A DNA stretch of 64,000 bases, taken from positions 27,600 to 91,599 of the forward strand of contig CAYRVX010000009.1 in the NCBI GenBank assembly GCA_964427875.1. The letters are read 5' to 3'. This document shows, piece by piece, positions 3,481 to 59,289 of the stretch; within the stretch, counting starts at the first letter, position 1; each line of letters opens with the position of its first letter. This stretch comes from an uncultured Planctomycetaceae bacterium (GTDB taxonomy: Bacteria; Planctomycetota; Phycisphaerae; SM23-33). The position numbers and the translations under genes were made by a program. The notes under the pieces are model-generated. The model saw only the letters and a program-made list of their open reading frames with translations, had not been told where the DNA came from and ran no database searches.

Positions 3481-3757
3481 CGAGTTTCACTCCGCATGTC
3501 TGGGTTTACAGGGAACAACAGGGGATGGGAGTGTAGGCACAGCGGGCTGACGTGTCAACGGCTTTTGCGCGCCGAAGAAGCGCGCAGGGCGGCAAGGCCC
3601 GGCTGGCAAAGGGCGCTTCGCCGGCTGAGGTTCTCCAGCGACTCGACGTGCGGTATCGTCTGCTGCGGCGGATCAGCGTGCCTCGGCTGATACTCCGGCC
3701 TCACCAAGGCTCAGGGCTTACCTTTAACAAGCAGTTTCAGGCTCCTCTCACACTTTC

Positions 3758-3786
3758 AGTGTATCACCGAGGCCCACAGGAGTCAA
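3758..3786 (-). promoter_or_regulatory. sigma70-like promoter candidate upstream of ppdK (TTGACT, 17-nt spacer, TACACT on minus strand)
   Basis: Reverse complement of agtgta(3758-3763)...agtcaa(3781-3786). Lies in a relatively AT-rich 360-bp intergenic region. Would imply a ~270-nt leader. Confidence 0.2.
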
Positions 3787-3844
3787 CGCACAAATTGATA
3801 ATACTTGGGATAATCCTAATAGCCTGTATGCGGCGCTGGGAGGC

Positions 3845-21565: not shown

Positions 21566-22495
21566 ATGCATGCAATGGATGGACAACCCGTCCTGATCGT
21601 CGAGGACGACGAGGACGACTGCCGACTGCTGGAGAGCCGGCTCACGGAGTACGGCCATCGGGTGACGGCGGCACACAGCGGGCAGGAGGCACTCGACCTC
21701 GTGCGCGACTTGGCCCCGCAGTTGATCCTCCTGAAGGTGTCTCTGCCCGGCATGGACGGGTTCGAGGTCTGCCGGCGGCTGAAGGCCGATCGCGACACGC
21801 GGGACATCCCGATCGTCTTCCTCACCGCGGCGGGCGAGGAGATCGACAAGATGAACGGCCTGCACGTCGGCGGGCTGGACTATATCTCCACGCCGTTCGA
21901 CGACGCCGAGCTGCTGGCGCGGACGACCTGGGCCCTGCGCCTGAAGCAGTTGCAGGATGAGCTGAGCGTCCCGGCCGAGGAGGACAAGCTCACCGGGCTG
22001 CTCAACAGCTCGTTCTTCAACGTGCAGTACCATCGCGAATGCAACCGCTCCCGGCGGTACGACTCGCTGTTCGCGGTGGTCATGGTGGACGTCGACCGTT
22101 TCCAGCAGGTCAACAGCCTCCACGGGGCGGCCTTCGGGGACCTGGTCCTGAAGGAGCTGGCCACCATCCTGCGCGAGCAGACCCGCGAGAGCGATTACGT
22201 CGCCCGCTGGGGGAGCAACGAATTCGTCCTGATGCTGCCGGAGGGGGACCTGCCCAAGGCGATTCGGTTCGCCAAGAAGCTCTACGGCGTGATCGCCGCC
22301 CACGAGTTCGGGCCCGCCGAGACGAAGATCCGGCTGACGGTCAGCATCGGCGTGGCCTCCCGGCAGAACCTCGGCGGAAGGGACCCCGGCGAACTGCTCA
22401 AGCTCGCCCGGGAGTCCCTCCACACCGCAAAGGAGCAAGGGGGCGACAAGATCGTCTATCACACGTGCGGCGAATTCAACACGGCGCACCTCTGA
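21566..22495 (+). CDS. response regulator with receiver and degenerate GGDEF domain
   Basis: REC domain (VLIVEDDEDD...D in LILLKVSLPGMDG). GGDEF-fold domain follows, with the signature replaced by GSNEF (RWGSNEFVL). Confidence 0.85.
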   Translation: MHAMDGQPVLIVEDDEDDCRLLESRLTEYGHRVTAAHSGQEALDLVRDLAPQLILLKVSLPGMDGFEVCRRLKADRDTRDIPIVFLTAAGEEIDKMNGLHVGGLDYISTPFDDAELLARTTWALRLKQLQDELSVPAEEDKLTGLLNSSFFNVQYHRECNRSRRYDSLFAVVMVDVDRFQQVNSLHGAAFGDLVLKELATILREQTRESDYVARWGSNEFVLMLPEGDLPKAIRFAKKLYGVIAAHEFGPAETKIRLTVSIGVASRQNLGGRDPGELLKLARESLHTAKEQGGDKIVYHTCGEFNTAHL

Positions 22496-22513
22496 CGAAG
22501 GGCCGATCCCGGC

Positions 22514-23191
22514 TCAGGGGCCTGCCCGCGGCAGCGACGCCGCCTGCATGAGGACCCGCTCGAGCCTCGGCGACGGTCCGCACGTGACGGTGTATGCGTG
22601 CGGGCGATCCGGCGACGGTATCCGCTCCACGTGGCGGGCGGGTCTGCCGTCGGCCCGTTGCCACTCGTGAGTGACCGCAAGCGGCGGGCGGTCGGGCAGG
22701 TAGTAGGGGTCGGAGGGGTCCCGCTGGCGGCTGATCAGCGTCGGGTCGGCGAGGCAGTCGGCGTAGGAGGCGATCGTCCCCTCCTCGGGCGGATGCCTGC
22801 GATGGTAGGCCTGGAGGTCGCCGTCGAAGAGGTGCCACGCGCCGTCGTAGGACACCTCCGTCGCCTCGTGCCCCTTGAGCCGGGGGATGCGGGCGGCCTG
22901 GAAACCGGCGTCGGCGTACAGCACCGCCAGCGTGTTGGCCGTCACGCCGCAGATCGACCAGCCGAACACGTTGAACAGCTTGACCGGGTCGTACACGAAG
23001 TGCCCGGTGAGCCTCTCGACGGCCGGGCAGTAATGGTAGAAGCCCTCGGCCTTGTCCACGAGGAGCCGCCAGACGGCCACGGCAAGCTCCTCGCCGCTCC
23101 TGGCGGCCAGGCGGCCACTGGCGAGCATGGACGCGATGCTGCGGAAGTCCGTCCATTTCGGCGAGATGATATGGGGCGAGATGATCAGCAT
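22514..23191 (-). CDS. transglutaminase-like superfamily protein (putative Cys-His-Asp core)
   Basis: GWSICGVTANTLAVLYADAGFQAARIPRLKGHEATEVSYDGAWHLFDGD fits the transglutaminase-like C...H...D core. The upstream part of the 467-aa track ORF is S/R-rich and was rejected. Start M at about 23191 (alternative at 23257). Confidence 0.4.
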   Translation of the reverse strand: MLIISPHIISPKWTDFRSIASMLASGRLAARSGEELAVAVWRLLVDKAEGFYHYCPAVERLTGHFVYDPVKLFNVFGWSICGVTANTLAVLYADAGFQAARIPRLKGHEATEVSYDGAWHLFDGDLQAYHRRHPPEEGTIASYADCLADPTLISRQRDPSDPYYLPDRPPLAVTHEWQRADGRPARHVERIPSPDRPHAYTVTCGPSPRLERVLMQAASLPRAGP

Positions 23192-23621
23192 CCTGCAACT
23201 CGGAATGCGCTCGCGGGCGAACGATGGGTAAATCACGCCGCAATCGCGGCGCACCATCACTGACGCACCATTCTCGGATGCGACACCAGCAATGCAAGCG
23301 TCCGTGTCAAATGTTGCGGTATGCGACCCCACCGTGTGCAGGCGGATGCAGTGACGGGGGATGGCCACTTCCCGGTCCGGGCGGTGAGCAGCTCGGGTCC
23401 GCAAGAATGCCTTGCCAATCCATTGCGCTGCCGCTATGATAACGGGTGCGTGGGCCTGTGTTCTGCCGGACCACAACGGCTGATGCCCGACTGGCGGAGA
23501 GCTCCTCTGGAGAGCACCGACCGTTAGGGTCTGGCCATCTTGTTTACCGGGCCTGAGTACTGAGGCGCGAAGTCCCGAGCGTTGGGTCGCGCACGGCGGG
23601 ACGGTGTCGCATTGTCGATTC

Positions 23622-24140
23622 ATGAGGTCCACCATGAGCAGCGAAGTGGCAAGCGAGGATCGGCTCCGAACAGCGAGGGAGAAGTGCCTCTCCGCCGAGT
23701 CCCTCGATGAGAAAGGCCGCGCGTTCCAAGACCTCGTTGCAGCCTTCTTTGAAGCGATCCCAGGCATCGAAGTGCAGGCTCGCGAGCAGAAGCTGGCAGA
23801 GGATAGGGCCGACCTTGTCCTATGGAACGACGGGATCGACCCCATTGGGGAGGGCCTGGACCGGGTGATCATCGTCGAGTGCAAGGCGCGAGAGAAGCCT
23901 ATCGGCCAGACCAGCATACGGGAGATGGTTCACAGGATCAAGTCGCACGGTCTGCACTCCGGCGTTCTTGCGACGACATCCAGATTCTCCAAGGCCGCTC
24001 AGGAAGAGGCCCGGCGTGCCCTCTCACACGATCAAGTCAAGCTCCTCCTCCTGGACAGGAAGACCTTCGCCAAAGTCCGCTCTGGCAAGGATGCCCGAGA
24101 TGCACTCAAGCGCCAGTATGCCGACCTCTTCCTGAAGTAG
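23622..24140 (+). CDS. stand-alone Mrr-type restriction-endonuclease-fold (PD-(D/E)xK) protein, paralog 1
   Basis: FQDLVAAFFEAIPGIEV...DLVLWN...VIIVECKAREKPIGQTSIREMVHRIKSHGLHSGVLATTSRFSKAAQEEA matches the Mrr catalytic-domain architecture (D ... E-x-K, then the TTS.F..A.e helix). Local GC is visibly lower than the flanks. Confidence 0.65.
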   Translation: MRSTMSSEVASEDRLRTAREKCLSAESLDEKGRAFQDLVAAFFEAIPGIEVQAREQKLAEDRADLVLWNDGIDPIGEGLDRVIIVECKAREKPIGQTSIREMVHRIKSHGLHSGVLATTSRFSKAAQEEARRALSHDQVKLLLLDRKTFAKVRSGKDARDALKRQYADLFLK

Positions 24141-24169
24141 CTCCGGGCGAGCAAAGTGGAGCATCCCGA

Positions 24170-24706
24170 ATGAAGGCCGCTGCGGTGCGGGCTAGCATAT
24201 TCGATGCCGTGACCTATGCATCGCTCGTGAAACTGGCTGAGCGAGCTCGGAAGCCACTTCAGAAGGGCCGGAAACTCGAGGACTTGGTGCAGTACCTTCT
24301 GAGCACAGTCCCCGGTCTCGAGATCCAGGCACGCGATTTCCGAGGGCCCTCTGAGGAGGTCGATCTCGTTGTCTGGAACCAGTCGCACGACACGGTCTTC
24401 TCAGACTGGGATTCCGTTATCTTCGTCGAGTGTAAGAACTGGTCATCTCGGATCGGCGTTCCGGAGGTGGTGGTGTTCATCGATCGACTCAGACGGGCTG
24501 GCTTGAGGAATGGCCTTCTTGTGGCCCGCAACGGCGTGACGGGCACTGCGCGTACAGATGCCAGGCTGTTGCTGGGAGAGACGCTCCGTGATCATATCCG
24601 TATCGTCGTCATCACCCTCGCCGAACTGGGCGCGATCAGCAGCCTGCACGAGTTCCTGGATCTCTGCAAGAGGAAGTACTGCGGGGCATTCCTGCGGCAG
24701 ATGTGA
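24170..24706 (+). CDS. stand-alone Mrr-type restriction-endonuclease-fold protein, paralog 2
   Basis: LEDLVQYLLSTVPGLEIQAR...DLVVWN...VIFVECKNWSSRIGVPEVVVFIDRLRRAGLRNGLLVA. Same architecture as paralog 1, about one third identical by eye. Confidence 0.65.
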   Translation: MKAAAVRASIFDAVTYASLVKLAERARKPLQKGRKLEDLVQYLLSTVPGLEIQARDFRGPSEEVDLVVWNQSHDTVFSDWDSVIFVECKNWSSRIGVPEVVVFIDRLRRAGLRNGLLVARNGVTGTARTDARLLLGETLRDHIRIVVITLAELGAISSLHEFLDLCKRKYCGAFLRQM

Positions 24707-24829
24707 CTTTGTGTTCGCCTGGCGGGGCAGACCTCCGACCCCGCTGTCCTGACCTGGGAGAGCCGCTCGCCCGAGTCTAGGACTGTCCGCAACGCTGCGA
24801 TCCCCGGTCGAGTCGGCGCGGCTTCGCGC

Positions 24830-26818
24830 CTATTTCTCAGTCGGCACGACGATGCCGCGGATGATGATGTTCTGGCAGAACACGAACACGAGGAAGGTCG
24901 GGATGGCCGCGATGACGAGGGAGGCGTAGACGACGGCCTGGTGGGCCTGCGTCCAGAGCTGGAAGATCCACACCATCAGCGTCCACATCTTCTGGTCGGG
25001 GATGATGATCAGGGCCATCATGAACGCGCTGTAGGCGGCCCGGAAGGCGTTGAGCGCGATGACGGCGAGGATCGGCTTGGAGAGGCTCATCGTGATGGTC
25101 CAGAACTTGGTCCACTCGCCGGCCCCGTCGATGTCGGCCGCCTCGTACAGCTCGCGCGGCAGGCTGTCGAAGAAGCCCTTGAGCAGGAAGATGAAGAACC
25201 CGTTGGCCATGCCCGGCAGCACGAGCGCGGCGAAGGTGTTCAGCAGGCTGACGAACGGGCGGCCTATGACGGCGGGCACGGCCCAGACGCCGACGACCGT
25301 CGCGACGGCCAGCGCCATCGTGAAGCGCAGGACCTCCGGCACGCGGGACAGCAGCCTCGAGAGCAGCCAGACCGTCACGCCGAACGATACGCCGGCGCCC
25401 AGCAGCGGCCAGAGGGGAAACCGCTTCATCAGCAGGAAGGCCGGGATCATCGTCACCTCGCCGGGAAACGCCATGGTCGCCATCAGCAGCAGGAGGATCT
25501 TGTACGTGCTGGGCGGCTTGTAGCGGCTCAGCGCGTAGGCCCCCAGCGGGTTGACAATAAGCGCCGAGCCGATCGCCAGCACGACGTAGATCAACGTGTT
25601 GACGATCCCCCGGCCGTGCAGGAGGAGGTACTCGAAAACGTGCTTGTAGTTGCGCGTGGAGAACTCCGACCGCAGTTCGCCGGTGCGGCTCGTGCAGTCG
25701 TGGTAGTCCGCCTGGGCGATGGGAAGGTCGATCGGCGAGACCTCTTCGACCCCCACGCCGCGTTTCTCGGCGACGAACTGCTCGAAGAGCTGCCTCGGTC
25801 CGAAGACGTCGATCCCCTCGGCCGGGCAGAGCGTGCGCTCCTTCAGGAAGCCCGCCCAGTCCACCGCCATGAACCGGTGCTCGGGGACCAGCGTGGGCAT
25901 GGGCACGTCGTCGAAGCTGCGATAACTCGTGCCGTATTTGGCGTTGACCTCGCCGATGCCGGCGTAGATCTCGGTGGAGAGGTACTTGCGGAAGTTGCTC
26001 GCGAGGGAGCCGGCCAGCCGGACGAATCGCAGGGGGACGATCTCGCGGACGTATTCCTCCCAGTCTTCTCGCTGCCTGCGGTCAGCAGGTGCCCGGGGGG
26101 CGAGGAAGATCTCCTCGTAGCTCTTGCGCGAGGTGCCGTGGGTGCGGTTGTACTCCGCGACGTCGGGCGTGTAGTTGCGAACGAGGAACTGCCGGAAGGC
26201 CCCGTCGAGGTTGCTGATCACGCGCTCGTGGACGGGTCGTGACTCGGCAAAGGGCGCAAACGCCTCTCGCCTCGGGTCGGCCAGCGGCGGGTAGCGGCTG
26301 GGAGGGGCTGGAGGAGGCATGACCCCGTTCCACGTCGTCACGGGGAACTTCATGTGATCGTGGTAGGCCTTGATGTCGCCGTCGAAGCGGTCGAACATGA
26401 GCCGGCGGAACAGCCGGGCGTTGATCGGCAGCAGCTTGCCGCCCTCGGTATGACCCAGCCGCCACCACGGGCACCGCGATCGCCATTCGAGGAAGTCGTC
26501 GAGATACTCGGACTCTGCGGGGGGCGCGATGCTTCGCCAACTGCCGATGCGCTTTCCCCAGGCGGCCTCGGCGTCGCTGATCTTCACGTTGTGCTTGGAC
26601 TCGACGTACTTCTGGAACAGCACGAGGTCGTCGAACCAGAACCGCGGCAGGGGCGTGATGTAGACGCTGTCGGCCTCGGACTTCATCGAGCCGCTGACCA
26701 TGAGCATGAACGGGTAGATCATCGTCAGCGAGCCGGCGATCAGCAGCGTGTAGACCACACCGTACACGACGCGGACCTTCGAGCTGCGCGAGCCGACTGT
26801 GCTGATGATGGGCATCAA
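24830..26818 (-). CDS. carbohydrate ABC transporter permease (MalG-like) with long N-terminal extension
   Basis: C-terminal EAADIDGAGEW...permease signature. Multiple TM helices. 662 aa. Confidence 0.8.
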   Translation of the reverse strand: MMPIISTVGSRSSKVRVVYGVVYTLLIAGSLTMIYPFMLMVSGSMKSEADSVYITPLPRFWFDDLVLFQKYVESKHNVKISDAEAAWGKRIGSWRSIAPPAESEYLDDFLEWRSRCPWWRLGHTEGGKLLPINARLFRRLMFDRFDGDIKAYHDHMKFPVTTWNGVMPPPAPPSRYPPLADPRREAFAPFAESRPVHERVISNLDGAFRQFLVRNYTPDVAEYNRTHGTSRKSYEEIFLAPRAPADRRQREDWEEYVREIVPLRFVRLAGSLASNFRKYLSTEIYAGIGEVNAKYGTSYRSFDDVPMPTLVPEHRFMAVDWAGFLKERTLCPAEGIDVFGPRQLFEQFVAEKRGVGVEEVSPIDLPIAQADYHDCTSRTGELRSEFSTRNYKHVFEYLLLHGRGIVNTLIYVVLAIGSALIVNPLGAYALSRYKPPSTYKILLLLMATMAFPGEVTMIPAFLLMKRFPLWPLLGAGVSFGVTVWLLSRLLSRVPEVLRFTMALAVATVVGVWAVPAVIGRPFVSLLNTFAALVLPGMANGFFIFLLKGFFDSLPRELYEAADIDGAGEWTKFWTITMSLSKPILAVIALNAFRAAYSAFMMALIIIPDQKMWTLMVWIFQLWTQAHQAVVYASLVIAAIPTFLVFVFCQNIIIRGIVVPTEK

Positions 26819-26925: not shown

Positions 26926-29505
26926 TCATTCGCCAATTCCCCGTGCCGTTCGGAACTCCATCCGGCTGAGCCTCTGGAGCTGCACGACGGTGAAGCCGAT
27001 CAGCATCGCCCCGAGCACCCACGCCATCGCCGTGGCGGGCCCGAAGCGCAGGAACGCGAACGCCTGCCAGTAGATGTGCAGCCCGACGACCTCGGTCCGC
27101 CCGTACGGCGTGTACGGGCCGCCCCCGGTCATGGCGAGGATCAGCCCGCCGCCGGTCTTCATCACGCCGATGATCGCGCCGATGAAGTTGATCATGATCA
27201 GCGCCTTGATGCCGGGAACGGCGATGTGGCGGGCCTTCGCCCACATGCCCGCCCCGTCGATGTCCGCCGCCTCGTACAGCTCCTCCGGCACGGTCTTCAA
27301 GGCCGCGAGGTAGATCAGGCAGCCCGGGCCCATGCCCGCCCAGATCGTCGGCAGCAGGCAGCAGAACAGCGCGAAGTCGGACTTGAGCCACTGGGTCGTC
27401 ACCTCCGCCATCTCGACGCCGGGAATGAAGTTCAGCACCCAGATCGCGCCGTTGACGAGCGTGTTGATCGTGCCGTAGCGCCCGTAGAAGCCTCGCCAGA
27501 GGAAGATCGTCACCACCCCCGCGAGCACGGCCGGCAGGTAGTACACCGTGCGGAAGAGGATCTTCCCCCGGGGCACCTCGGTGAGCAGGAAGGCCAGCAC
27601 GATCGGCGCGCCGAAGCCGAAGACGATGAACAGCAGCGTGTACTGGAGGGCCACCCACATGGCGTACCAGAACTCGTCGTCGAACAGGACGTTGGCGAAG
27701 TTCTCCATGCCGATCCACTGGCTGAAGCCTCGGACGTTGTAGTCCTGGAACGCGATGACCGTCCCCCGCAGCAGCGGCCAGTACCGCCACAGCAGGATCG
27801 TGCCCACCGCCGGGATCAGCAGGATATAGGCCCACTTGAACCGCCCGAACTGCCAGGAGCCCTTTCGCCCCGGCTCGAGCAGCTCGGCCTTCGAGAAGAC
27901 CTTGAAGACGCGGTAGAACACCGCCGCGAAGACGAGGAAGATCACGATGGCCGTGCCCATCGCCACGTTGTTTCGGAACCGCCGCTGCTCGGGCGTGAGG
28001 ATGTTGAGCATCTTCTCGTTGCTGCGGCGGACGCGCCCCTTGAGGATCTCGCGGATGCGGTCCTTCGCGGCGGCGGGGTCGTTGGTGTTGATCGCCCGCT
28101 CGATCGTCTCGTCCACGCAGATCTGGTCGATGGCCTTCGAGACGTACGTGTAGACCTTCTGGCAGTTCCGGCCGTACGGCTCCGGAATGCCGTGTTCCAG
28201 CGCGATCTGGGCGGACTCCTCCCAGCCCTTCGGGACCTGGCGGACGTACTCGGGGTAGCCGACCTTCTCCAGCAGCCTCGGGCGGACGTACCGCCCCTGG
28301 CCGTTCTCGATCATCGTCCGGGCGCGGATCTCCCGCGATTCCGGGCCGTCGAAGAAGCGAATGTACTCCCAGGCGGCGTCGCGCCGGACGGGGTCGTCTT
28401 CCAGCCCGGCGTAGATGCCGACCATCCGCGAGTTGAACTCGGCGCCCCGCAGGCCCGTGGGGCCCTTCGGCACGGGGCCGAAGCCGTACTGCGCCGGGTC
28501 ACGCTCCGCGAAGAACCGCTGATCGAGGTACTGGAACTCCATCCCGCACTTCTCTTCGCCGGTCATCTGGGCCTCGCCCACGTAGACCACCCCCGTGAAC
28601 GTGCCGTGCTCGTTGGTGAACTTCTCGAGGAAGAACCGCGCCACGAGATAGTAGGCCTCGACGGCCTCCTCCGAGTCGAACACGCACCGCCACCGGCCGT
28701 TGGCGTCCTGCTCGACGACCCGCCCACCGAGCGAATAGAGAAAGCTCAGCGTGCTCCAGCCCAACTCCTCCAGGGAGATCTTCAGACCGTAACGGTCTTC
28801 CCTGGGGTTGGTGAGCTTGCGGCACCATTGGAGCATTTCCTCGATGGTCTCGGGCACGCGGTCGGGCAGGCCGGCCTCGAAGAACAGGTCCTTGCGATAG
28901 AACAGCGCGATGAAGTCCGGGCCGATGGGGAAGCACCAGACGTGCTCGTGCCTGGCGGGCACGTCGCCGCCGCAGTACGGGCAGTCGCGGCCGTAGGGAC
29001 ACTCGCGGCGCATCACCTGCCAGCACTGGTACGGCACGCGGTCGGCGATCTGGCGGTCGTAGTTGGCCCCCTTCTTCAGCTCGCGCAGGTAGTCGTCGAG
29101 CTTCAGCAGGTGGCCGTTGGGAATGTCGACGCCGGAGAGCCTCTCGACGTACTCATCCAGCGGATAGAGGAACTTGCTGCGGATGTACGTGTCGGACTGG
29201 CGGAAGTTGACGTACAGGACGTCCGCGGCGATGTCACCGGCGATCTGCATGAGGGGGATGATGTCTTTCGTGGAGCGCCCGGGGATCTCCAGCCCCGCCG
29301 TCGAGACCGGTTCGACGGAAGGGAACTCCTGCCGGAACGCCTCGATGATCCTCCGACCGGCCAGTGCGTAGAGGTCGTTGGCCGTGTGCATGGGCACGCC
29401 GTGGGCGCGGAGCGTGATCTTCGGGGCGGCCTCATCACCGTGCACGGCGGCGGTTGGCATCAGGGCGATCGACAGACATGCGCAAGCAGCCGTGCACCTG
29501 TTCAT
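26926..29505 (-). CDS. fused extracellular solute-binding domain plus ABC transporter permease (MalF-like)
   Basis: Signal peptide MNRCTAACACLSIALMPTAAVHG. Long SBP-like N-terminal region, then 6 TM helices with EAADIDGAGMWAKARHIAVPG (EAA loop). Confidence 0.75.
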   Translation of the reverse strand: MNRCTAACACLSIALMPTAAVHGDEAAPKITLRAHGVPMHTANDLYALAGRRIIEAFRQEFPSVEPVSTAGLEIPGRSTKDIIPLMQIAGDIAADVLYVNFRQSDTYIRSKFLYPLDEYVERLSGVDIPNGHLLKLDDYLRELKKGANYDRQIADRVPYQCWQVMRRECPYGRDCPYCGGDVPARHEHVWCFPIGPDFIALFYRKDLFFEAGLPDRVPETIEEMLQWCRKLTNPREDRYGLKISLEELGWSTLSFLYSLGGRVVEQDANGRWRCVFDSEEAVEAYYLVARFFLEKFTNEHGTFTGVVYVGEAQMTGEEKCGMEFQYLDQRFFAERDPAQYGFGPVPKGPTGLRGAEFNSRMVGIYAGLEDDPVRRDAAWEYIRFFDGPESREIRARTMIENGQGRYVRPRLLEKVGYPEYVRQVPKGWEESAQIALEHGIPEPYGRNCQKVYTYVSKAIDQICVDETIERAINTNDPAAAKDRIREILKGRVRRSNEKMLNILTPEQRRFRNNVAMGTAIVIFLVFAAVFYRVFKVFSKAELLEPGRKGSWQFGRFKWAYILLIPAVGTILLWRYWPLLRGTVIAFQDYNVRGFSQWIGMENFANVLFDDEFWYAMWVALQYTLLFIVFGFGAPIVLAFLLTEVPRGKILFRTVYYLPAVLAGVVTIFLWRGFYGRYGTINTLVNGAIWVLNFIPGVEMAEVTTQWLKSDFALFCCLLPTIWAGMGPGCLIYLAALKTVPEELYEAADIDGAGMWAKARHIAVPGIKALIMINFIGAIIGVMKTGGGLILAMTGGGPYTPYGRTEVVGLHIYWQAFAFLRFGPATAMAWVLGAMLIGFTVVQLQRLSRMEFRTARGIGE

Positions 29506-29595
29506 GAAATGACCTCGTCGGCCCGGCTCGGCGCCGGGAATGGACGCCATTGTATCTAATCCGCCGAACGGCGGAAGGTGTTCGGCCCTGGGCGG

Positions 29596-33559: not shown

Positions 33560-34657
33560 TTTCTTCCGCCCATCCCTCACCGCCTTGGCCAGCAGCCTGA
33601 ACGCCTCGTTCTCCTTCTGGCGCCCGCGCGTCCCGCCGTCGTTCCAACTGACGATCAGGTCCAGCGACGGCACGATCGCCATCGCGCGAATGCCCCCGTG
33701 CCCGAACGCGCCGAAGGTGTCCGTCGGCGCATCGGGCCAATGGCGCTTGTTCTCGCGGTCCACGCCGTTGGTCCACCACAGCCAACTGTAGCTGCCCATG
33801 TGGTCGGTCTGGTTGTCGGGGATGTTCCGCGAGCCGATGGACCGCTGATGCGGGATCATGTCGGCCGCCTTGTTGCCGGCGCGCGGGACGGTGTTCGGCA
33901 GCGGCTTGCCGGCCGCCATCTTCGTGAACGTCGCGCCGATCAACTGCCTGCCCTTCCACCTGCCCCCGCGCAGGTACAGCAGGCCGAAGCGGCAGAAGTC
34001 GCGCGGGGAGATCCCCACCCGCCCGGGGCGGTTCTTCACGCCGAACGCCATCATCGTCGGCCGGTCCTCGCAGCCGATCGGGGCCGTCAGCAGCCGGCGA
34101 AAGACCTTCTCGTCCGCCGTCTCGTACGTCACGCCGTACACCTTCAGGAACAGCGCGTCCCAGAGGAGCGCCATCTGCCAGTCGTTGTAGGCGTAGGCGC
34201 TCCCGGGGCGCTCGATGAGCCCGTAGCAGGACGTCTGGTTGGCCAGGTGCCGGAAGGTGATCTCGCGGTCCTTGTGGCCGAGGGCGGCGTTGATCTTCGC
34301 CAGGCGCGGCTCGAACTTCACCGCTTTCTCATCCACGCCCGAGAGCTTTCCGTCCTCGACGGCCTTGAAGAGGAAGTGGCTGTAGAAGACCTTGGCGGCG
34401 GAGGCGACGTCTCGCCGCCGGCCGGCGTCGCCCCAGGTGTGGACCATGCAGCCGCCGCGAACGACGCAGCCGCGCCCGCCGACGAAGTCGCTGAAGGCCT
34501 TCAAGGCCGCCTGATCGAGCCCGGCCTCCTGCGGCGAGCGCCTCTGCCAGGTCCTGCCCGGGCACACCTCTTCGCCGAGCAGCGGAAATGGGCTCACGAG
34601 GACCACCCAGGCCGCGCCGAGCCGCCGCAGCCGACGAGAAAACGCTGGTCCGAACAT
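33560..34657 (-). CDS. secreted beta-lactamase-fold serine hydrolase (copy A)
   Basis: Signal-like N-terminus. S-x-x-K motif context (ASAAKVFYSHF), YAYNDW, GHGGIRAMAIVPSLDLIV. The 3' end is set at the REPIN; no stop codon occurs in frame until 31370. Confidence 0.5.
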
Positions 34658-34815
34658 GCCTCACCTCGCACGTGGTTGCGGATGCACCCGTTCTTGAACA
34701 CGGGCCGCTCCGGACACGCACGGTCGTAACCGCTTCGGTCGCGTCGTTCAAGCACTTCCCGGGCCCGCAGGCCGACTGTTGCGTAACGGGTCGATTCGGA
34801 TACGCTGGTAAGCAC

Positions 34816-35634
34816 ATGCCGGACAGACGGACGCTATTTCGGACGCACTCGGTGCTGCTGCCCGCGGCGATGATGCTCCTGCCGGCGGGCTGCAAAAAGG
34901 AGAATGCCCCCGCGGGCCCGCCCCGGCCGGGCGACGCCGTCACCAACGCGATCGGCATGAGGCTCGTCTACGTGCCGCCGGGTGAGTTCACGATGGGCAG
35001 CGGCGTGGACGAGGCCGGCCGGCACGAAGACGAAGTTCAGCACCACGTAACGATCTCGCGGGGGTTTTACATCGGTGCCACGGAAGTAACGCAGCGACAG
35101 TGGCAGCGTATGATGAACTTCAATCGCAGCGAGACGAAAGGCGACGACCTGCCGGCATCGCGGCTGTCGTGGCATCACGCCGAGACGTTCTGTAAGAAGC
35201 TCGGACAGGCCGAGGGGCGGGGCTACCGCCTGCCGACCGAGGCCGAGTGGGAGTACGCCTGCCGCGCGGGCTCGACGGGCCCCTTCGGAGGCACGGGCAA
35301 GCTCGACGAGATGGGCTGGCACATGGACAACAGCGGCGAGCGGCCCCACCCCGTCGGCCGCAAGAGGCCCAACGCCTGGGGCCTGCACGACATGCACGGA
35401 GGCGTATTCGAATGGTGCGCGGACTTCTACGGGCGCGACTATGCGACCGAGGCGGCCACCGATCCGCGAGGCCCGGCGACGGGAAAGTATCGCGCCGCGA
35501 GGGGCGGATCGTGGGGCCACTTCGCCCGCGCCTGCCGCAGCGCCGCAAGGGCGAGCTTCAACCCGGCATATCAACTGGATCAGGTCGGCCTTCGCGTCGT
35601 AATGGAACCGACCGGCCACAGCAACGGGAGATGA
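34816..35634 (+). CDS. formylglycine-generating-enzyme (FGE/SUMF1) family lipoprotein
   Basis: Lipobox LLPAGC. FGE-sulfatase family motifs RLPTEAEWEYACRAG ... NAWGLHDMHGGVFEWC ... RGGSW. Confidence 0.8.
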   Translation: MPDRRTLFRTHSVLLPAAMMLLPAGCKKENAPAGPPRPGDAVTNAIGMRLVYVPPGEFTMGSGVDEAGRHEDEVQHHVTISRGFYIGATEVTQRQWQRMMNFNRSETKGDDLPASRLSWHHAETFCKKLGQAEGRGYRLPTEAEWEYACRAGSTGPFGGTGKLDEMGWHMDNSGERPHPVGRKRPNAWGLHDMHGGVFEWCADFYGRDYATEAATDPRGPATGKYRAARGGSWGHFARACRSAARASFNPAYQLDQVGLRVVMEPTGHSNGR

Positions 35635-35637
35635 ACG

Positions 35638-36843
35638 ATGGTCAGCAAGCGTGAGACGAAGAGGATGGCCCGACGGGAGGTCCTCAAGGGGGTCGCCGCG
35701 GCGACGTTCACCATCATGAGGCCGTCGCTGGTTCGCGGCGCCGAGGCCAACTCGAAGGTCGAGCTGGGCATGATCGGCTGCGGCGGACGCGGCAACTGGA
35801 TCATGAACCTCTTCAACAAGCACAAGGGCTACAAGGTGGTCGCGTGCGCGGACTACTTCAAGGACCGCGTCGACCGCTTCGGCGAGAAGTTCGGCGTGCC
35901 GGCGGACAGGCGGCACACCGGCCTGTCGAACCACGCCAAGCTGCTGGCGGGCAAGCTCGACGCGGTGGCGATCGAGAGCCCGCCGTACTTCCACCCGATC
36001 CAGGCCGCCGCGGCCGTCGAGGCCGGCAAGCACGTCTACGTCGCCAAGCCCATCGCCGTGGACGTGCCCGGCTGCACCACGATCGGCGAGGCGGGCAGGA
36101 AGGCCACCGCCAGGAAGCTCGTCTTCCTGGCCGACTTCCAGACCCGCGCGAGCGCGATCTACCAGGAGGCGGTCAAGCGCGTGCACAACGGCGACATCGG
36201 CCGCCTGGTCAACGGCGTGGCCGTCTACTACTGCGGCTTCATGTTCGGCAAGACGCGGCCCAAGGATCCCGAGGGCCGTCTGCGCAGGTGGTGCCTGGAC
36301 CAGGTGCTCTCCGGCGACATCATCACCGAGCAGAACATCCACGCGCTGGACGTGGCGTGCTGGATCATGGACGCCGATCCGATCAGCGCCGTCGGCACGG
36401 GCGGGCGGAAGCTGCGGACCGGCGACGGCGTGATCTACGACCACTTCAACCTGGTCTACACCTTCCCGAAGGACGTGCCGATCTCCTTCACCTCCCGCCA
36501 GTTCGGCCATGGGCAGGGCGACATCGGCTGCTGGGCCTTCGGCAGCCGCGGAACGATCGACACGCACTACTTCGGCACCGTGAAGGTCCTCGGCGACACC
36601 CCGTGCGCCGGCGGGAAGATGGCCAATCTCTTCACCCAGGGCGCCGTGAACAACATCGCCACGTTCCACAAGTCGATCACGGGAAGCGTGTACCACAACC
36701 CGACGGTCGCGCCCAGCGTGCGGAGCAACCTGACGACGATCCTCGGCCGCATGGCCGCCTACACCGGCAGGAAGGTCACCTGGGCGGAGATGATGAAGGC
36801 CAACGAGAAGCTCGACGCGAAGCTCGAAGGCCTGAAGGCGTGA
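35638..36843 (+). CDS. Gfo/Idh/MocA-family oxidoreductase with twin-arginine signal
   Basis: RREVLKGVAAATFTIM (Tat motif), GMIGCGGRG Rossmann motif, AKPIAV/EKP-type motif. Confidence 0.85.
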   Translation: MVSKRETKRMARREVLKGVAAATFTIMRPSLVRGAEANSKVELGMIGCGGRGNWIMNLFNKHKGYKVVACADYFKDRVDRFGEKFGVPADRRHTGLSNHAKLLAGKLDAVAIESPPYFHPIQAAAAVEAGKHVYVAKPIAVDVPGCTTIGEAGRKATARKLVFLADFQTRASAIYQEAVKRVHNGDIGRLVNGVAVYYCGFMFGKTRPKDPEGRLRRWCLDQVLSGDIITEQNIHALDVACWIMDADPISAVGTGGRKLRTGDGVIYDHFNLVYTFPKDVPISFTSRQFGHGQGDIGCWAFGSRGTIDTHYFGTVKVLGDTPCAGGKMANLFTQGAVNNIATFHKSITGSVYHNPTVAPSVRSNLTTILGRMAAYTGRKVTWAEMMKANEKLDAKLEGLKA

Positions 36844-36893
36844 TGCGCCCCGGCATCCGCTCCGATACGGACGAAGGCCTGGGAGGAAGCAAG

Positions 36894-39503
36894 ATGCCCT
36901 ATTGCGGATTGCGGATTGCGGATTGCGGATTCTCTGCGCTCGCGGTGACCGCGGCGATCCTGACGTGCTCGTGCCTCGCCGCCGGCGAAGACACCGAATC
37001 GCTCGGCCGGTGCGTGATCTCCGTCGGCTCCAAGGCGATCGACCCGAAGACACACGCCATCGTCACGCCGGAGAAGCCGACGGAGCAGGAGAGCTTCGCC
37101 GCCGAGGACCTCCGGGCGCAGCTCGAGAAGCTGACCGGCAAGGCGCCTTCAGTGGTGAGAGAGGGCGAGCTGGGCGGCAAGACGCCGATCGTCGTGGGCA
37201 AGTGCACGGCCCTGCTGAAGAAGCTCGGGGTGAAGATCGGCTTCGAGGCCCTCGGCGACGAGGGCATCGTCGTCAGGACCAGGGGCGACGCTCTTGTCCT
37301 CGCCGGCAACCGGCGCGGCGTGCTCTACGCCACGTACACGTTCCTGGAGGACTACTGCGGCTGCAAGTGGCTCACGCCCGACTGCACCGTGCTGCCGAAG
37401 AGCGGCCAGTTCCGGATCGCCGACCTCAACGTCCGCTACATCCCCCCGCTGGAGTACCGCTCGACCGACTACCCATGCTCGCGGCCGGCCGAGTGGGCCG
37501 TGCGAAACAAGATCAACGGCACGCAGACGCGGCTCGCCGAGAAGCACGGCGGGAAGATCGCCTACTCGCACTTCGTCCACACGTTCAACAGCATCCTGAA
37601 CCCGGCCGAGCACTTCGCCGAGCACCCGGAATACTTCTCCATGATCGACGGCAAGCGCGTCGGCAAGAGGACGCAACTGTGCCTTACCGACCCGAACGTG
37701 CTGGCCATCGCCAAGCAGACCGTGCGCCGGTGGATCGAGGCCGCCCCCGACGCCACGATCTTCAGCGTCTCCCAGAACGACTGGCACAACTACTGCCGCT
37801 GCCCGAGGTGCGAGGCGCTGGCCAGGAAGGAAGACTCACAGGCCGGGCCCCTGCTGCACTTCGTCAACGCCATCGCCGACGACATCGCCAAGGACTACCC
37901 CGACAAGCTCATCAGCACGCTGGCGTACCAGTACACGCGAAAGCCGCCGAGGCACGTCAGGCCCCGGCCGAACGTCTGCGTCCGCCTGTGCAGCATCGAG
38001 TGCTGCTTCGCGCACCCGCTGGACGTCTGCCCCACCAACCGCACCTTCGTGGACGACATCCGCAACTGGAACAGGATCTGCAACCGGCTGTACATCTGGG
38101 ACTACGTCATCAATTACGCCCACAGCGTTCAGCCGTTCCCCAACCTCCACGTGCTGGCGCCGAACATCCGCTTCTTCATCGCCCGCGGCGTGAAGGGCAT
38201 CTACGAGGAGGCGTGCTACTTCACGCCCGGCTCGGAGCTGGCCGAGCTGCGCACGTGGATCATGGCCAAGACGCTCTGGGACCCGGACTACGACACCGAC
38301 AAGGCGATCGACGAGTTCCTCGCCGGCTACTACGGCCCCGCGGCCGGGCCGCTGCGCAAGTACATCAACCTCATCCACAAGCAGGTCGCCGACCACGCCG
38401 ACTGGCACGCGAACATCTGGTCGCCCCCGACGGCGGCGTACCTCTCGAAGCGAGTCATCACGCGGTCGGCGAAGTACCTCGATGAGGCCGAGGCGGCCGT
38501 GAGGCACGACCCCGTCCTGCTGCGCCGCGTGCGGATCGCCCGCATGCCGGTCCAGTACGTGCAGATCATGACGGCCTCGCGGGGCTACCGCGCCGAGGGC
38601 GACGCGCTCGTCGCCGCCGAAGACGAGAAGGTCTCCGCCAGGATCGACCGCTTCGAGGCCACCGCGCGCAAGGCGGGGCTGAGGCTCGTCCGCGAACACC
38701 ACCAGCACGGCAACCTCGAGGCGTGGCTGAAGAAGGTCCGGCAGGCCCCGAAGGTCCCGATCGTCCGGCTGGAGAACGCCGGGCTGCGGCTCGCCGTCCT
38801 GCCGGGGATCGGCGGGCGCATCTGGCGGATGACCTACAGGCCCACCGGCCGGGACATCCTCAAGCGATATAAGGCCAGCGACGGCGGGGAGGTCCCCGAC
38901 GCCGGCGGCTACGAGGAGTATTCCCAGGGCGAGTACCGCTCGCCCGGCTGGCGGGAGAAGTTCCGCGTCGTGAAGAAGGATAAGGGGTCGGTCGCGCTGG
39001 AGGGGCGGCTGACGAACGGCCTGCGTCTGCGGCGGACGATCCGCCTGCCGGACGACGACGCGGTGGTCGAGATCCACTCGACGCTCACGAACGTCAGCAA
39101 GGGGCCGGCCCGAGCGTGCCTGCGGGCGCATCCGTGCTTCGCCGTCAGGGACGTGAGGAAGGCGGCCGTCCTGATCGGGCGGCCCGGCGGCGCGGTCCTC
39201 CGCAAGTCGCTGGACATCCCCGCGGACCGGAAGCAGGAGACCGACGAGCTCCTCAGCGGGAAGGACATGCCCGCCGGGCAGTGGACGCTTCTCGAACCGG
39301 CCGGGGCGTTGGAGATCACCTCGCGATTCGAGGCCGGGCAGGTCGCCCAGTGCCTGCTGAACCGCAGCATCCCCGACGGCCGCGTCAACCTGGAGCTTTA
39401 CACGAAAGGCGTCGTCCTGAAGCCCGGCGAGTCGATCGAGCTCAAGCACAGCATCGCCGTCCGGAGGGCGCAGAGAGACACGGCGGCCAAGGCCGCCCGC
39501 TGA
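36894..39503 (+). CDS. secreted DUF4838-like glycoside-hydrolase-associated protein
   Basis: RBS ggagg 8 nt upstream of the atg. Signal peptide. Conserved Cys-rich and aromatic blocks (NDWHNYCRCPRCEA..., IWDYVINY...) typical of DUF4838 proteins in CAZyme loci. The track ORF begins at 35844, but that portion overlaps the Gfo gene in another frame. Confidence 0.55.
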   Translation: MPYCGLRIADCGFSALAVTAAILTCSCLAAGEDTESLGRCVISVGSKAIDPKTHAIVTPEKPTEQESFAAEDLRAQLEKLTGKAPSVVREGELGGKTPIVVGKCTALLKKLGVKIGFEALGDEGIVVRTRGDALVLAGNRRGVLYATYTFLEDYCGCKWLTPDCTVLPKSGQFRIADLNVRYIPPLEYRSTDYPCSRPAEWAVRNKINGTQTRLAEKHGGKIAYSHFVHTFNSILNPAEHFAEHPEYFSMIDGKRVGKRTQLCLTDPNVLAIAKQTVRRWIEAAPDATIFSVSQNDWHNYCRCPRCEALARKEDSQAGPLLHFVNAIADDIAKDYPDKLISTLAYQYTRKPPRHVRPRPNVCVRLCSIECCFAHPLDVCPTNRTFVDDIRNWNRICNRLYIWDYVINYAHSVQPFPNLHVLAPNIRFFIARGVKGIYEEACYFTPGSELAELRTWIMAKTLWDPDYDTDKAIDEFLAGYYGPAAGPLRKYINLIHKQVADHADWHANIWSPPTAAYLSKRVITRSAKYLDEAEAAVRHDPVLLRRVRIARMPVQYVQIMTASRGYRAEGDALVAAEDEKVSARIDRFEATARKAGLRLVREHHQHGNLEAWLKKVRQAPKVPIVRLENAGLRLAVLPGIGGRIWRMTYRPTGRDILKRYKASDGGEVPDAGGYEEYSQGEYRSPGWREKFRVVKKDKGSVALEGRLTNGLRLRRTIRLPDDDAVVEIHSTLTNVSKGPARACLRAHPCFAVRDVRKAAVLIGRPGGAVLRKSLDIPADRKQETDELLSGKDMPAGQWTLLEPAGALEITSRFEAGQVAQCLLNRSIPDGRVNLELYTKGVVLKPGESIELKHSIAVRRAQRDTAAKAAR
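36901..36931. repeat. heptanucleotide tandem repeat (ATTGCGG)x4.4 inside the first 13 codons of the downstream gene
   Basis: attgcgg attgcgg attgcgg attgcgg att. Unit length is not a multiple of 3. Confidence 0.9.
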
Positions 39504-57505: not shown

Positions 57506-57988
57506 ATGAGCAGGGATCAGGCCATCACGGCCGGGGGGAATCAGCGGGCGTTCAGCCTGCTGGAGATCGTGCTCGTGTTGGCCGTCTTCGTGGTTCTGGC
57601 GGCGATTGCCGCGCCGCGTTACGGGCGCGCCGCGGCCCGGTATCGCGCGGATGCAGCCGCCCGGAGGATCGTATCGGATATGGCCCTGACCCGCAAATCA
57701 GCCCGATCCGCCGGCGCCCGGCGGGCCCTGAGCTTCTCGGTGGAGTCCGACGAATACTCCGTCGCCGGGATGGCCGACCTGAGGGACTCCTCGGCCGATT
57801 ACCGCGTGGACCTGAAGGCCCGGCCGTACGAGGCCCGCATCCTCTCCGCCGATTTCGGCGGCGACGCAGAGCTTGTCTTCGACGGCTACGGGGCCCCCGA
57901 CAGTGGCGGCCGCGTCCGCGTGCAGGTCGGCGAGGCCGTCCGCACCGTCCTGTTCGACGCCAATACATGCGAGGCTGCCGTCCAATGA
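57506..57988 (+). CDS. minor pseudopilin (GspH-like)
   Basis: QRAFSLLEIVLVLAVFVVLAAIAAP prepilin-type N-terminus. 160 aa. Confidence 0.7.
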   Translation: MSRDQAITAGGNQRAFSLLEIVLVLAVFVVLAAIAAPRYGRAAARYRADAAARRIVSDMALTRKSARSAGARRALSFSVESDEYSVAGMADLRDSSADYRVDLKARPYEARILSADFGGDAELVFDGYGAPDSGGRVRVQVGEAVRTVLFDANTCEAAVQ

Positions 57989-58530
57989 GGGCTCACGGCG
58001 CCGGACATCGCCGCCGGCCAAGCGCCCGGCAAAGCGCGACGGGGCACACGCTGATCGAGCTGCTCCTCAGCGTGGCGATCATGGCCGTCCTGATGGGCGC
58101 GATGGTCATTTCTCTCGCCGTCGCCTCGCGCGCCCTCGACGACGGTGCCGGCCCGGCCGGGCAGACCCGCCGCGCCGCCGGGATCGTCGAGGACATGGAC
58201 GCCGATCTGGCCATGGCCCTTTCGTTCACGGAGCGGACGCCTCAGGCCGTGACCTTCACCGTGCCCGACCGCGACGGGGACGCAAACAGCGAGACGATCC
58301 GCTACTCGTGGACCGGCCCGGACGACGGGCGCCTGCTCCGGCGGGTCAACGGCGGCCCGGCGGTCGCCATCGCCCAGGACGTGCGCCACTTCAACCTGAC
58401 CTATCAGCTCAAGACGATTGCCGCAAGCCAGGACAAGGACGAAAAGGGCAAGAAGGACAAAGACAAGGGCAAGAAGGACAAAGACAAGGACAAGGATGAC
58501 AAGGGGGGAAAGAAGAAGGGACATCACTGA
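57967..58530 (+). CDS. minor pseudopilin-like protein with Lys/Asp-rich C-terminal tail
   Basis: GHTLIELLLSVAIMAVLMG (prepilin-type). C-terminus KDKDEKGKKDKDKGKKDKDKDKDDKGGKKKGHH. Confidence 0.6.
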   Translation: MRGCRPMRAHGAGHRRRPSARQSATGHTLIELLLSVAIMAVLMGAMVISLAVASRALDDGAGPAGQTRRAAGIVEDMDADLAMALSFTERTPQAVTFTVPDRDGDANSETIRYSWTGPDDGRLLRRVNGGPAVAIAQDVRHFNLTYQLKTIAASQDKDEKGKKDKDKGKKDKDKDKDDKGGKKKGHH

Positions 58531-58571
58531 GGTGGAGGAGGCCCGCCATGGAGACTCGGCGCGGCCAGGAG

Positions 58572-59257: not shown

Positions 59258-59289
59258 GGGCAGGTCCGCGCCGCGTCGGAGACGAGGCC

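Follow-up and report, generated by a model that had tools for sequence, protein, structure and literature searches.

Which function can be expected of two small, adjacent genes that each encode a nuclease domain and little else? The question is raised by genes A and B, which lie side by side in the window, that is, the whole stretch of 64 kb of DNA that was analyzed. A preliminary description had proposed a toxin or defence-type nuclease module or a heterodimeric nuclease, and the results discussed below suggest that A/B are plausibly a defence-type or heterodimeric nuclease. Most likely they form a two-subunit defence nuclease, because they represent a rare, stripped-down version of a module that is often situated beside phage-defence genes. 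We assign a probability of roughly 55% to the reading that A/B are an acquired two-gene operon for a hetero-oligomeric defence nuclease, stemming from a reduced module in which a protein with a nucleoside-deoxyribosyltransferase (NDT)/TIR-like domain and a restriction endonuclease (REase) domain is paired with a second REase. The features of the locus are the following:

22514-23257, minus strand: possibly transglutaminase-like gene (247 aa, uncharacterized family), outside the module, head-to-head (divergent) with gene A
23100-24800 (roughly): low-GC islet that comprises the intergenic region 5' of A, gene A, gene B, and the 3' spacer; GC 0.585-0.645 in 200-bp windows
23412-23440, plus strand: weak match to a sigma-70-like promoter (TTGCCA-17-TATGAT, 10/12), about 195 nt upstream of A; 1 found versus 0.4 expected in shuffles
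23634-24140, plus strand: gene A ("A-short"), 168 aa, stand-alone Mrr_cat/PD-(D/E)xK domain
24170-24706, plus strand: gene B, 178 aa, member of a REase family of about 177 aa
24815-24830, plus strand: GC-rich hairpin (GGCGCG-GCTT-CGCGCC) with a T-rich tail; 1 found versus 1.0 expected in shuffles, not significant alone
24830-26818, minus strand: ABC permease gene, converging on B

Both open reading frames are intact and on the same strand, at the places given in the preliminary description. The length of about 178 aa that it gave for the two proteins applies to B, while A has 168 aa, or 172 aa if an alternative ATG at position 23622 is used. The motif GAGG is found 6 nt 5' of the ATG of A, and GGAG 8 nt 5' of that of B. 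Both proteins exceed the gathering cut-off of the Pfam family Mrr_cat (PF04471), which is 21 bits, A with 57.1 bits (2.4e-15) and B with 32.8 bits, and the proposed complete PD-(D/E)xK core of the Mrr type is thus supported by profile searches. The catalytic-type residues are D60, W64-N65, and E82-C-K84 in A, and D65 and E87-C-K89 in B, and the signature D-x-x-x-W-N is common to both. Each ORF contains its own full set of REase secondary-structure elements, in agreement with a restriction-endonuclease alpha/beta fold of A and B. The invariant residues of the B family include G33, E37, E63, D65, N70, V86-E-C-K-N90, G115, A119, and G122-x-T-G125; gene B has 17 of the 17 invariant residues of the family alignment as well as the signature E-x-D...VECKNW...NGVTG. 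The motif TTSRFSKAA, which had been ascribed to both proteins, is present in A, whereas B contains VARNGVTGTA, including the NGVTG of its family. An AF2 monomer model of A has a pLDDT of 88.9, and Foldseek matched A with the nuclease domains of AspBHI, EcoT38I, and MspJI; NucS and Avs4 were also among the structural matches, and a PDB sequence search with A alone yielded no match. Further Pfam domains are absent from both proteins, as is any evident DNA-recognition domain, including the Mrr_N winged helix that is fused to Mrr_cat in proteins like E. coli Mrr. Therefore, A and B consist of the nuclease domain only, and the reported lack of an N-terminal recognition domain holds.

A and B share 30% identity (BLASTP, E 2e-25), and the profiles of the two families also match (hhalign, 99.8%, E 1.4e-28). 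These alignments indicate that they are diverged paralogs, as had been supposed. The acidic position in helix 1 is an invariant Glu in the B family and is kept as E37 in gene B, but it is Gln31 in A and Lys in the orthologous protein of another locus (L005). In addition, A matches Pfam NA-iREase1 (PF22722) with 30.9 bits (2.9e-7; cut-off 27), which is weaker than its Mrr_cat match. Because of the substitution in helix 1 and this match, A may be catalytically impaired. However, the NA-iREase1 domains of NACHT proteins are "inactive", while A keeps the catalytic D/E/K and thus falls outside this class, and A has no NACHT neighbor at the window locus.

The GC content of A and B together is 60.0%, compared to a window mean of 68.1% (z = -3.7), and it is the lowest among all 1.1-kb segments of the window. 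Their GC3 values of 0.75 and 0.73, respectively, compare with 0.89 +/- 0.054 for 33 long ORFs. The drop in GC content and the differing codon usage that had been noticed by eye are thereby verified, neither property is uniform with the flanks, and the pair is horizontally acquired DNA of foreign composition. The orthologous pair of L005 is likewise GC-poor (0.585 versus 0.655 in its flanks). Flanking direct or inverted repeats were restricted to matches of at most 16 nt, which is chance level, and no tRNA, Rfam element, or integrase was found near A/B. An empty insertion site was sought at 24 metagenome loci with relatives of the transglutaminase-like gene, none of which keeps the synteny of the window. 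The pair is surrounded by genes for glycan degradation and transport, and no methyltransferase, integrase, or defence gene is present within about 15 kb. The location of the window copy outside any defence island is a point contrary to a defence reading. The hairpin between B and the ABC permease gene is a possible shared terminator of the two genes.

The transglutaminase-like gene had been described as part of the low-GC islet and as convergent on the pair. Neither statement could be upheld: its composition is native (GC 0.67-0.75, GC3 0.907), and it diverges from A, whereas B has its convergent neighbor in the ABC permease gene. The protein is possibly transglutaminase-like, as suggested by an invariant Cys...His...YDGAWHLFD pattern, whose C103, H130, and D145 are shared by all 16 homologs, and by a weak match (E 0.003) of its profile to PDB 4xz7, in which the Cys, His, and Asp are aligned. 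No match was obtained with Pfam (E <= 1), NCBIfam, or PADLOC. An A/B pair is present at 0 of the 24 related loci, and the gene is an unrelated native neighbor of A/B.

That the pair matches no gene pair with a name, as had been stated, overstated its uniqueness, because it is a domain-loss derivative of a widespread two-gene module, which itself appears to be unnamed. The B family of about 177 aa is present in many bacterial phyla (Bacteroidota, Pseudomonadota, Actinomycetota, Cyanobacteriota, Bacillota, Acidobacteriota, and Planctomycetota) and in some archaea, and examples of the module were found in Christiangramia, Acinetobacter calcoaceticus, Sulfurimonas, Streptomyces, Methanosarcina, and on the Agrobacterium plasmid pAtH25_79a. 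The same-strand gene directly 5' of B belongs to one homologous partner cluster at 74 of 80 genome loci. The usual partner has about 300 aa and consists of an N-terminal NDT/TIR-like domain with a conserved Glu and an A-type REase domain, in which the catalytic residues are retained across partners (D 99%, E 88%, K 92%). The two genes abut or overlap, with a median distance of -3 nt between the stop of the partner and the start of B. The pairwise distances of partner and B correlate with r = 0.87 (permutation maximum 0.075), and this co-divergence lends indirect support to a physical heterodimer. The mean pairwise distance is 0.78 for the A-type partner versus 0.60 for B, which is thus the slower-evolving component. 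The phyletic spread is patchy, the genomic context differs between close relatives, a third gene conserved across the 80 loci was not found, and a DNA search of 5,426 E. coli genomes revealed 0 homologous loci. No A-B fusion protein was found either; long ORFs at three loci (L077, L084, and L089) were considered as fusions and rejected, because they combine a novel N-terminal domain with a B-like REase. The lack of fusions and the gap of 29 nt instead of an overlap between A and B are contrary points to a heteromeric defence nuclease.

A name for the module is absent from PADLOC, NCBIfam, PHROGs, and the searched literature. No system-specific model of PADLOC-DB v2.0.0 was matched significantly; weak domain-level matches to PDC-S02 were obtained (A 2.9e-5, B 0.0049), and those of the long partners were limited to the CBASS "Effector TIR" model, a generic one. 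Swarozyc (DUF4062) was rejected as the identity of the module, as it is a different, single-gene TIR-like system. The combination of an NDT/TIR-like-REase protein and a second REase is a conserved, widespread, and apparently unnamed module.

The whole of A can be aligned with the C-terminal REase domain of the partners of about 300 aa, and gene order and strand are those of the long form. An NDT/TIR-like domain, which is present in more than 90% of the relatives, is absent from A, and an HMM search of the six frames of positions 22401-24300 revealed no remnant or pseudogene of the N-terminal domain 5' of A. Because A starts at the REase domain and this region lacks an N-terminal HMM match, the window pair is regarded as a reduced variant of the module, which also differs from the long form in that A and B are separated by 29 nt without overlap. 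The A-short lineages form one monophyletic group, which lies within the B proteins that have long partners, and, as judged from the sequences, the short form is derived by loss of the N-terminal domain. It is rarely encountered: when 1.84 billion representatives were searched exhaustively, only 2 matched at E <= 1e-30. The neighborhood search for paired Mrr_cat-only genes that had been suggested revealed three or four short-form lineages, but mostly long-partnered pairs (74/80 loci paired). The short-form lineages have differing genomic contexts and intact ORFs, and A and B are separate genes at 45-72% identity with preserved catalytic residues. The dN/dS values range from 0.07 to 0.26, among them one of 0.23 for which dS was not saturated (0.29), and they indicate purifying selection on these lineages. 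A further candidate for a short partner, P0112 (171 aa), was rejected because it occupies the downstream (B) position behind an Mrr_cat protein of 337 aa.

The wider family is often located beside known defence systems. Its neighbors include ThsB, GajA, pAgo, AriA, PD-T4-6, SLATT, and integrases, counted without correction for genomic background. For example, a type I restriction-modification system adjoins the pair at one locus (L093), Hachiman, IS110, and HEPN-NTase adjoin it on the Agrobacterium plasmid, and a "Beta protein" and a Schlafen-type helicase are encoded near the pair on a viral contig.

Several known systems share features with A/B. R.BspD6I, which is composed of a large subunit (nickase) and a small subunit of 186 aa, is likewise encoded by two adjacent genes for REase-fold subunits. 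However, the sequence identity is only about 10%, the heteromer of A and B is a predicted one, and the large subunit of BspD6I has a recognition domain, which A and B lack. A cognate methyltransferase is expected for heterodimeric type II restriction-modification systems of the BspD6I and BbvCI type, but none is encoded within about 15 kb of A/B. BbvCI and Bpu10I are type IIT enzymes with paralogous subunits. By analogy, A and B seem to resemble the small catalytic-only subunits of heterodimeric restriction enzymes that are active only with their paralogous partner. The modification-dependent enzymes Mrr, MspJI, and AspBHI (type IV/IIM) share with A and B the Mrr_cat nuclease domain and the lack of a cognate methylase, but they are single polypeptides with an N-terminal reader of modified DNA (winged helix or SRA-like), which is missing in A and B. 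AF1548 (PDB 1y88) is a stand-alone archaeal REase-fold protein of about 184 aa and unassigned function (16% identity), for which, to our knowledge, no paired paralog has been described. The N-terminal nuclease of Avs4 has the same nuclease fold as A/B. The combination of a TIR/NDT-like and an Mrr domain in the long-form relatives is shared by Mrr-TIR-APAZ, which occurs in short pAgo systems (PMC9097488). Unlike Avs4, short pAgo, and NACHT systems, A/B lack a STAND/NACHT ATPase, an APAZ, and an Argonaute partner.

The following scenario would account for these results. In the widespread module, a protein of about 300 aa with an NDT/TIR-like and an A-type REase domain is translationally coupled to a B-type REase of about 177 aa. 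In the lineage of the window, the upstream partner has shed its N-terminal domain, so that the nuclease pair alone was left. A and B would interact physically and assemble into a hetero-oligomeric endonuclease with DNA as its presumed substrate, in which B would be the strongly conserved catalytic subunit and A a faster-evolving partner that has kept its D/E-x-K core. The complex would act on foreign DNA, either by methylase-free restriction or by triggered abortive infection, and its role would thus be one in defence.

An alternative scenario is a toxin-antitoxin or addiction module, in which B is a toxic nuclease and A a degenerate REase-fold protein that neutralizes it in an inactive heterocomplex, whereby the cassette stabilizes itself or a mobile element. 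A small, tightly linked, and horizontally mobile two-gene cassette is what would be expected in this case, translational coupling of the upstream gene is also known from many toxin-antitoxin pairs, and the faster evolution of A (0.78 versus 0.60), its missing helix-1 Glu, and its match to an "inactive REase" model would fit to an inhibitor. However, A retains D60, E82, and K84, which are conserved at 88-99% across the partner family, and one would not expect this of a decoy that serves inhibition alone. Furthermore, nearly all relatives have a partner with an NDT/TIR-like enzyme domain and its conserved Glu, which is not antitoxin-like, and no HTH or autoregulatory domain is present, so that we consider this explanation unlikely. 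Another view is that the pair is a decaying relic, non-functional since the loss of the NDT/TIR-like domain, with drifting ORFs. The rarity of the short form, the loss of a domain found in more than 90% of the relatives, and the solitary position in a non-defence context could be understood in this way, but intact ORFs with RBS-like motifs, dN/dS values well below 1, and the maintenance of the short architecture, catalytic residues included, in three or four lineages whose identity falls as low as 45% make decay very improbable.

A housekeeping function in DNA repair or recombination, as a YraN/UPF0102-like, NucS/EndoMS-like, or Hjc-like resolvase pair, has a similarly low probability. B weakly matches UPF0102/YraN (Pfam E 0.001; NCBIfam 0.0012), a cluster member is labelled "Holliday junction resolvase-like predicted endonuclease" in one source, NucS was among the structural matches, and the context in the window is a housekeeping one. 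Yet all such matches are far below the family cut-offs, and the patchy distribution with contexts varying between close relatives, the foreign composition of A/B, the occurrence of the wider family alongside defence genes and mobile elements, and the negative DNA search of 5,426 E. coli genomes do not fit to a housekeeping gene pair. Lastly, two adjacent same-strand ORFs that both match Mrr_cat could be the remains of a single full-length Mrr gene that was disrupted, a case that the preliminary description had itself named as refuting its proposal. A and B are not such fragments, as each is a complete REase domain (covering positions 5-113 and 6-98, respectively, of the 115 profile positions); they are paralogous copies with 30% identity rather than consecutive parts, and the two-gene arrangement is conserved at about 80 loci. 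The probability of this explanation is negligible.

The reading of A/B as a hetero-oligomeric defence nuclease has a more far-reaching, tentative extension, which we regard as possible but rather doubtful: the pair of an NDT/TIR-like-REase and a REase might be an unnamed anti-phage or anti-plasmid immune system of many bacterial phyla and archaea, and A/B its self-sufficient heteromeric core, which would be minimal, methylase-free, and devoid of a recognizable DNA reader or sensor. If A/B were a toxin-antitoxin-like or relic cassette instead, the finding would be an ordinary one. A heterodimer of two catalytic-only subunits might be of practical use as a nickase or nuclease scaffold. With the natural domain deletion in the window, the contribution of the NDT/TIR-like domain to the module could be tested, be it as a sensor, a second effector, or a regulator, and the pair also allows a test of whether bare REase subunits of about 170 aa can discriminate targets at all. 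Should the wider family prove to serve in defence, the catalogue of prokaryotic immunity would gain a compact nuclease module of two genes.

The two adjacent Mrr-type nuclease genes that had been proposed in a preliminary description of the sequence, here called A (upstream) and B (downstream), are real ORFs on the same strand, separated by 29 nt. They and their direct neighbors are:

22514-23257, minus strand, transglutaminase-like gene (247 aa, GC3 0.907), head-to-head with A
23634-24140, plus strand, gene A (ORF, 168 aa), GAGG 6 nt 5' of the ATG
24170-24706, plus strand, gene B (ORF, 178 aa), GGAG 8 nt 5' of the ATG
24830-26818, minus strand, ABC permease gene, converging on B

An alternative ATG of A at 23622 leads to a protein of 172 aa, and both starts are found in public gene calls. 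In a Pfam search both proteins matched Mrr_cat above the gathering score cut-off of 21 bits (A 57.1 bits, B 32.8 bits), A also matched NA-iREase1 (30.9 bits), and no additional domains were found in either. Sequence comparisons clearly identify A and B as diverged paralogs, as had been suggested, with 30% identity across 146 residues (BLASTP, E 2e-25) and a probability of 99.8% (E 1.4e-28) in the profile-profile comparison of the two families. The PD-(D/E)xK core that had been described for both proteins is indeed present in A (D60, E82-C-K84) and in B (D65, E87-C-K89), and an unusual D-x-x-x-W-N signature is also common to them. However, the C-terminal motif TTSRFSKAA, attributed to both, is confined to A, and the corresponding position in B reads VARNGVTGTA. 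One position in helix 1 is Gln in A, Lys in the A protein of the homologous locus L005, and an invariant Glu in B.

The predicted structures are confident (AlphaFold2 pLDDT 88.9 for A and 92.2 for B) and have a common order of elements, i.e., two N-terminal helices, three strands, helix-strand-helix-strand, and C-terminal helices. The best Foldseek matches of both models were the nuclease domains of EcoT38I, AspBHI, MspJI, and NucS/EndoMS, as well as the REase-like N-terminal domain of RPB5. Models and matches together make the predicted REase fold well supported. The best characterized match of similar size, the small subunit of R.BspD6I (186 aa), is a catalytic-only subunit that is active solely within a heterodimer. 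Each protein thus has a complete REase fold with catalytic residues, and the reading of A and B as two fragments of one broken Mrr gene, the probability of which is practically nil, is refuted.

The A/B pair is of foreign origin. At 60.0%, versus 68.1% for the window, its GC content is the minimum over all windows of 1.1 kb (z = -3.7, with 0.08% of them equally low). The GC3 values of A (0.75) and B (0.73) compare with 0.89 +/- 0.054 for 33 long ORFs, so that the deviating composition noted by eye is borne out. The trough of low GC extends from about 23100 to 24800. In L005 the pair is also GC-poor compared to its flanks (0.585 versus 0.655), and therefore the cassette appears foreign in a second host context, too. 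The lowest GC3 values of the window after A and B (0.76-0.80 versus the mean of 0.89) belong to ORFs at 57889-60531 and 34495-39500, which may be other compositionally atypical segments.

The transglutaminase-like gene had been counted as part of the islet and as converging on the pair, but it diverges from A, its GC3 shows that it is native, and A/B were absent at all 24 loci related to it, so it is an unrelated neighbor. Its product had no match in Pfam, NCBIfam, PADLOC, or PHROG. Cys103, His130, and YDGAWHLFD145 are invariant in the alignment of its family and align with PDB 4xz7, a weak profile match (E 0.003) and the sole distant link of this family, which lacks a Pfam or NCBIfam model. 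The assignment is thus plausible but unproven, and the family (window, L098-L121) may be an unrecognized branch of transglutaminase-like cysteine proteases. The surroundings of the pair, to a distance of about 15 kb, contain genes for sulfatases, glycoside hydrolases, a CBM9 protein, a GGDEF response regulator, ABC sugar-transport proteins, and peptidases, and no methyltransferase, integrase, or defense gene. The two ABC sugar-transport genes adjoining the islet are fusions of unusual size, i.e., the permease gene at 24830-26818 (662 aa, with a long extra-membrane insert) and the gene at 26926-29550 on the minus strand (874 aa, matching both SBP_bac_1 and BPD_transp_1). Neither tRNAs nor Rfam elements were found in the window, and no convincing repeats flank the islet.

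The pair had been thought to match no nameable gene pair, yet it is not a one-off. A word-indexed search revealed 67 homologs of B, mostly of 174-182 aa and labeled at most "restriction endonuclease," with 17 invariant residues including E37, E63-x-D65, V-E-C-K-N (86-90), and G122-x-T-G125. A one-genome-per-species scan returned 156 relatives, and 80 loci were retained, from Bacteroidota, Gamma-, Alpha-, and Betaproteobacteria, Campylobacterota, Acidobacteriota, Actinomycetota, Cyanobacteriota, Bacillota, Planctomycetota, Chloroflexota, Spirochaetota, Deinococcota, and the archaea Methanosarcina and a thaumarchaeon. Clustering of the flanking ORFs showed that B is directly preceded on the same strand by a protein of one homologous cluster of about 300-330 aa at 74 of the 80 loci, and has no other conserved neighbor. 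The C-terminal REase domain of this long partner is homologous to A (conservation D 99%, W 92%, E 88%, K 92%). Its N-terminal domain carries the motif E-x-G-x-A-x-x-G-K-P-V, matches Pfam Nuc_deoxyrib_tr below threshold (about 1e-5) and the PADLOC CBASS "Effector TIR" (1.4e-11), and has precomputed labels of PF05014 or TIR_2. The partner gene overlaps B or directly adjoins it (median distance of -3 nt between partner stop and B start), and the pairwise distances of partner and B are correlated with r = 0.87 over 79 loci (permutation maximum 0.075), so that the two are inherited and diverge as a unit. Pairing is obligate family-wide, and the mean pairwise distance is 0.78 for A versus 0.60 for B. 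This two-gene REase module is widespread and apparently unnamed.

What looks like a third architecture has the B-type REase as the C-terminal half of a single protein of about 340 aa without upstream partner (L077:3291-4355, L084:618-1649, and L089:1891-2901; two Acidobacteriota and a Desulfobacteraceae MAG), with a common N-terminal domain of about 180 aa unmatched by the profiles of the B family, the A-type REase, and the NDT-like N-domain. In L095 (IMG/VR UViG_2524614578_000002) a 487-aa pentapeptide-repeat protein (3566-5029) replaces the usual partner and overlaps the B homolog (5001-5564), with "Beta protein" (PF14350) and a Schlafen-group-3 helicase directly upstream.

Short partners of 168-173 aa, consisting of the REase domain only, were found at the following loci:

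L001-L004, the window's own lineage
L005-L008, A 54% and B 72% identical, flanked by a sigma-70 gene and a hydrolase gene
L009, A 57% identical
L090, A 45-47% and B 61% identical

Nearly all matches of a profile search against 5.8 billion proteins were long forms of about 301 aa, the short forms being A of the window (P0001) and of L090 (P0107). When 1.84 billion cluster representatives were searched exhaustively with phmmer, only two matches had E <= 1e-30, namely the cluster of the query itself and the L005-type cluster. A further protein of 171 aa (P0112) was rejected as a short partner; its gene is in the B position, following that of a 337-aa Mrr_cat protein. In a neighbor-joining tree of B proteins, those with a short partner, three in number, group together in a single clade within those with long partners, and therefore loss of the N-terminal domain is the parsimonious reading, which makes the window pair a rare, derived form of the module. 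Neither a remnant of this domain upstream of A nor a second copy of A or B in the window was found. The short form is under purifying selection, with dN/dS values of 0.07-0.26 (L005 versus L009 0.23 at an unsaturated dS of 0.29). In two related metagenome lineages, L005 (2281-3352) and L009 (1961-2594), the pair is inserted immediately behind a complete sigma-70 (RpoD-like) gene and is GC-poor compared to it (0.585 versus 0.655), the same cassette as in the window in a different host context.

Searches for named systems gave weak domain-level matches only for A/B and relatives in PADLOC v2, nothing for the pair in NCBIfam, unknown-function or weak matches in PHROGs, no description in the literature on the Mrr_cat/NDT-type domain combination, and no relative in 5,426 E. 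coli genomes (DNA search). Defense or mobility genes are frequent around loci of the wider family. By raw counts, 150 flanking proteins from 18 loci include ThsB/TIR (3-4), GajA, pAgo with a SIR2-type partner, AriA, PD-T4-6, and SLATT (2 each), and phage integrases (3), a neighborhood pattern typical of defense islands. The L093 pair adjoins a type I R-M system. The long-form pair L097 (269-aa hypothetical protein and 175-aa "restriction endonuclease") on the Agrobacterium tumefaciens plasmid pAtH25_79a (NZ_CP123849.1 65880-78416) adjoins Hachiman (DUF1837 and DEAD/DEAH helicase), an IS110 transposase, and a nucleotidyltransferase-HEPN protein, apparently a defense island. IMG/VR viral contigs carry three copies, one next to UmuDC/SRAP and another next to "Beta protein" and a Schlafen-type helicase. 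The window copy is outside any defense island.

While the structural and evolutionary statements on the pair can be made with high confidence, its function as a heteromeric defense nuclease has a probability of roughly 0.55. A and B would form a hetero-oligomeric endonuclease derived by duplication of a homodimeric ancestor, with B as the conserved catalytic subunit and A as a second, faster evolving subunit that has kept D/E/K. The NDT/TIR-like domain of most relatives may contribute a control function or an activity directed at nucleotides or NAD, and the window lineage would have dispensed with it. The target would most likely be foreign DNA; the nearest structural relatives are cleavage domains of restriction enzymes, several of them modification-dependent and methylase-free. 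The complex would have to choose its targets without a reader domain. A toxin-antitoxin pair with B as toxin and A as decoy would fit a small coupled cassette and the partial degeneration of A, but seems unlikely given that A-type domains have kept their catalytic triad and that most partners have an enzymatic domain at the N-terminus. A housekeeping role in repair or as a resolvase, for which sub-threshold similarities to YraN and NucS are the sole basis, is very improbable in view of the patchy and mobile distribution, and a decaying relic, contradicted by conservation and dN/dS, is about as improbable.

The general idea of the preliminary description was reasonable, and the pair, which represents the widespread module in a rare, reduced form, merits an experimental test, preferably beside a long-form homolog.
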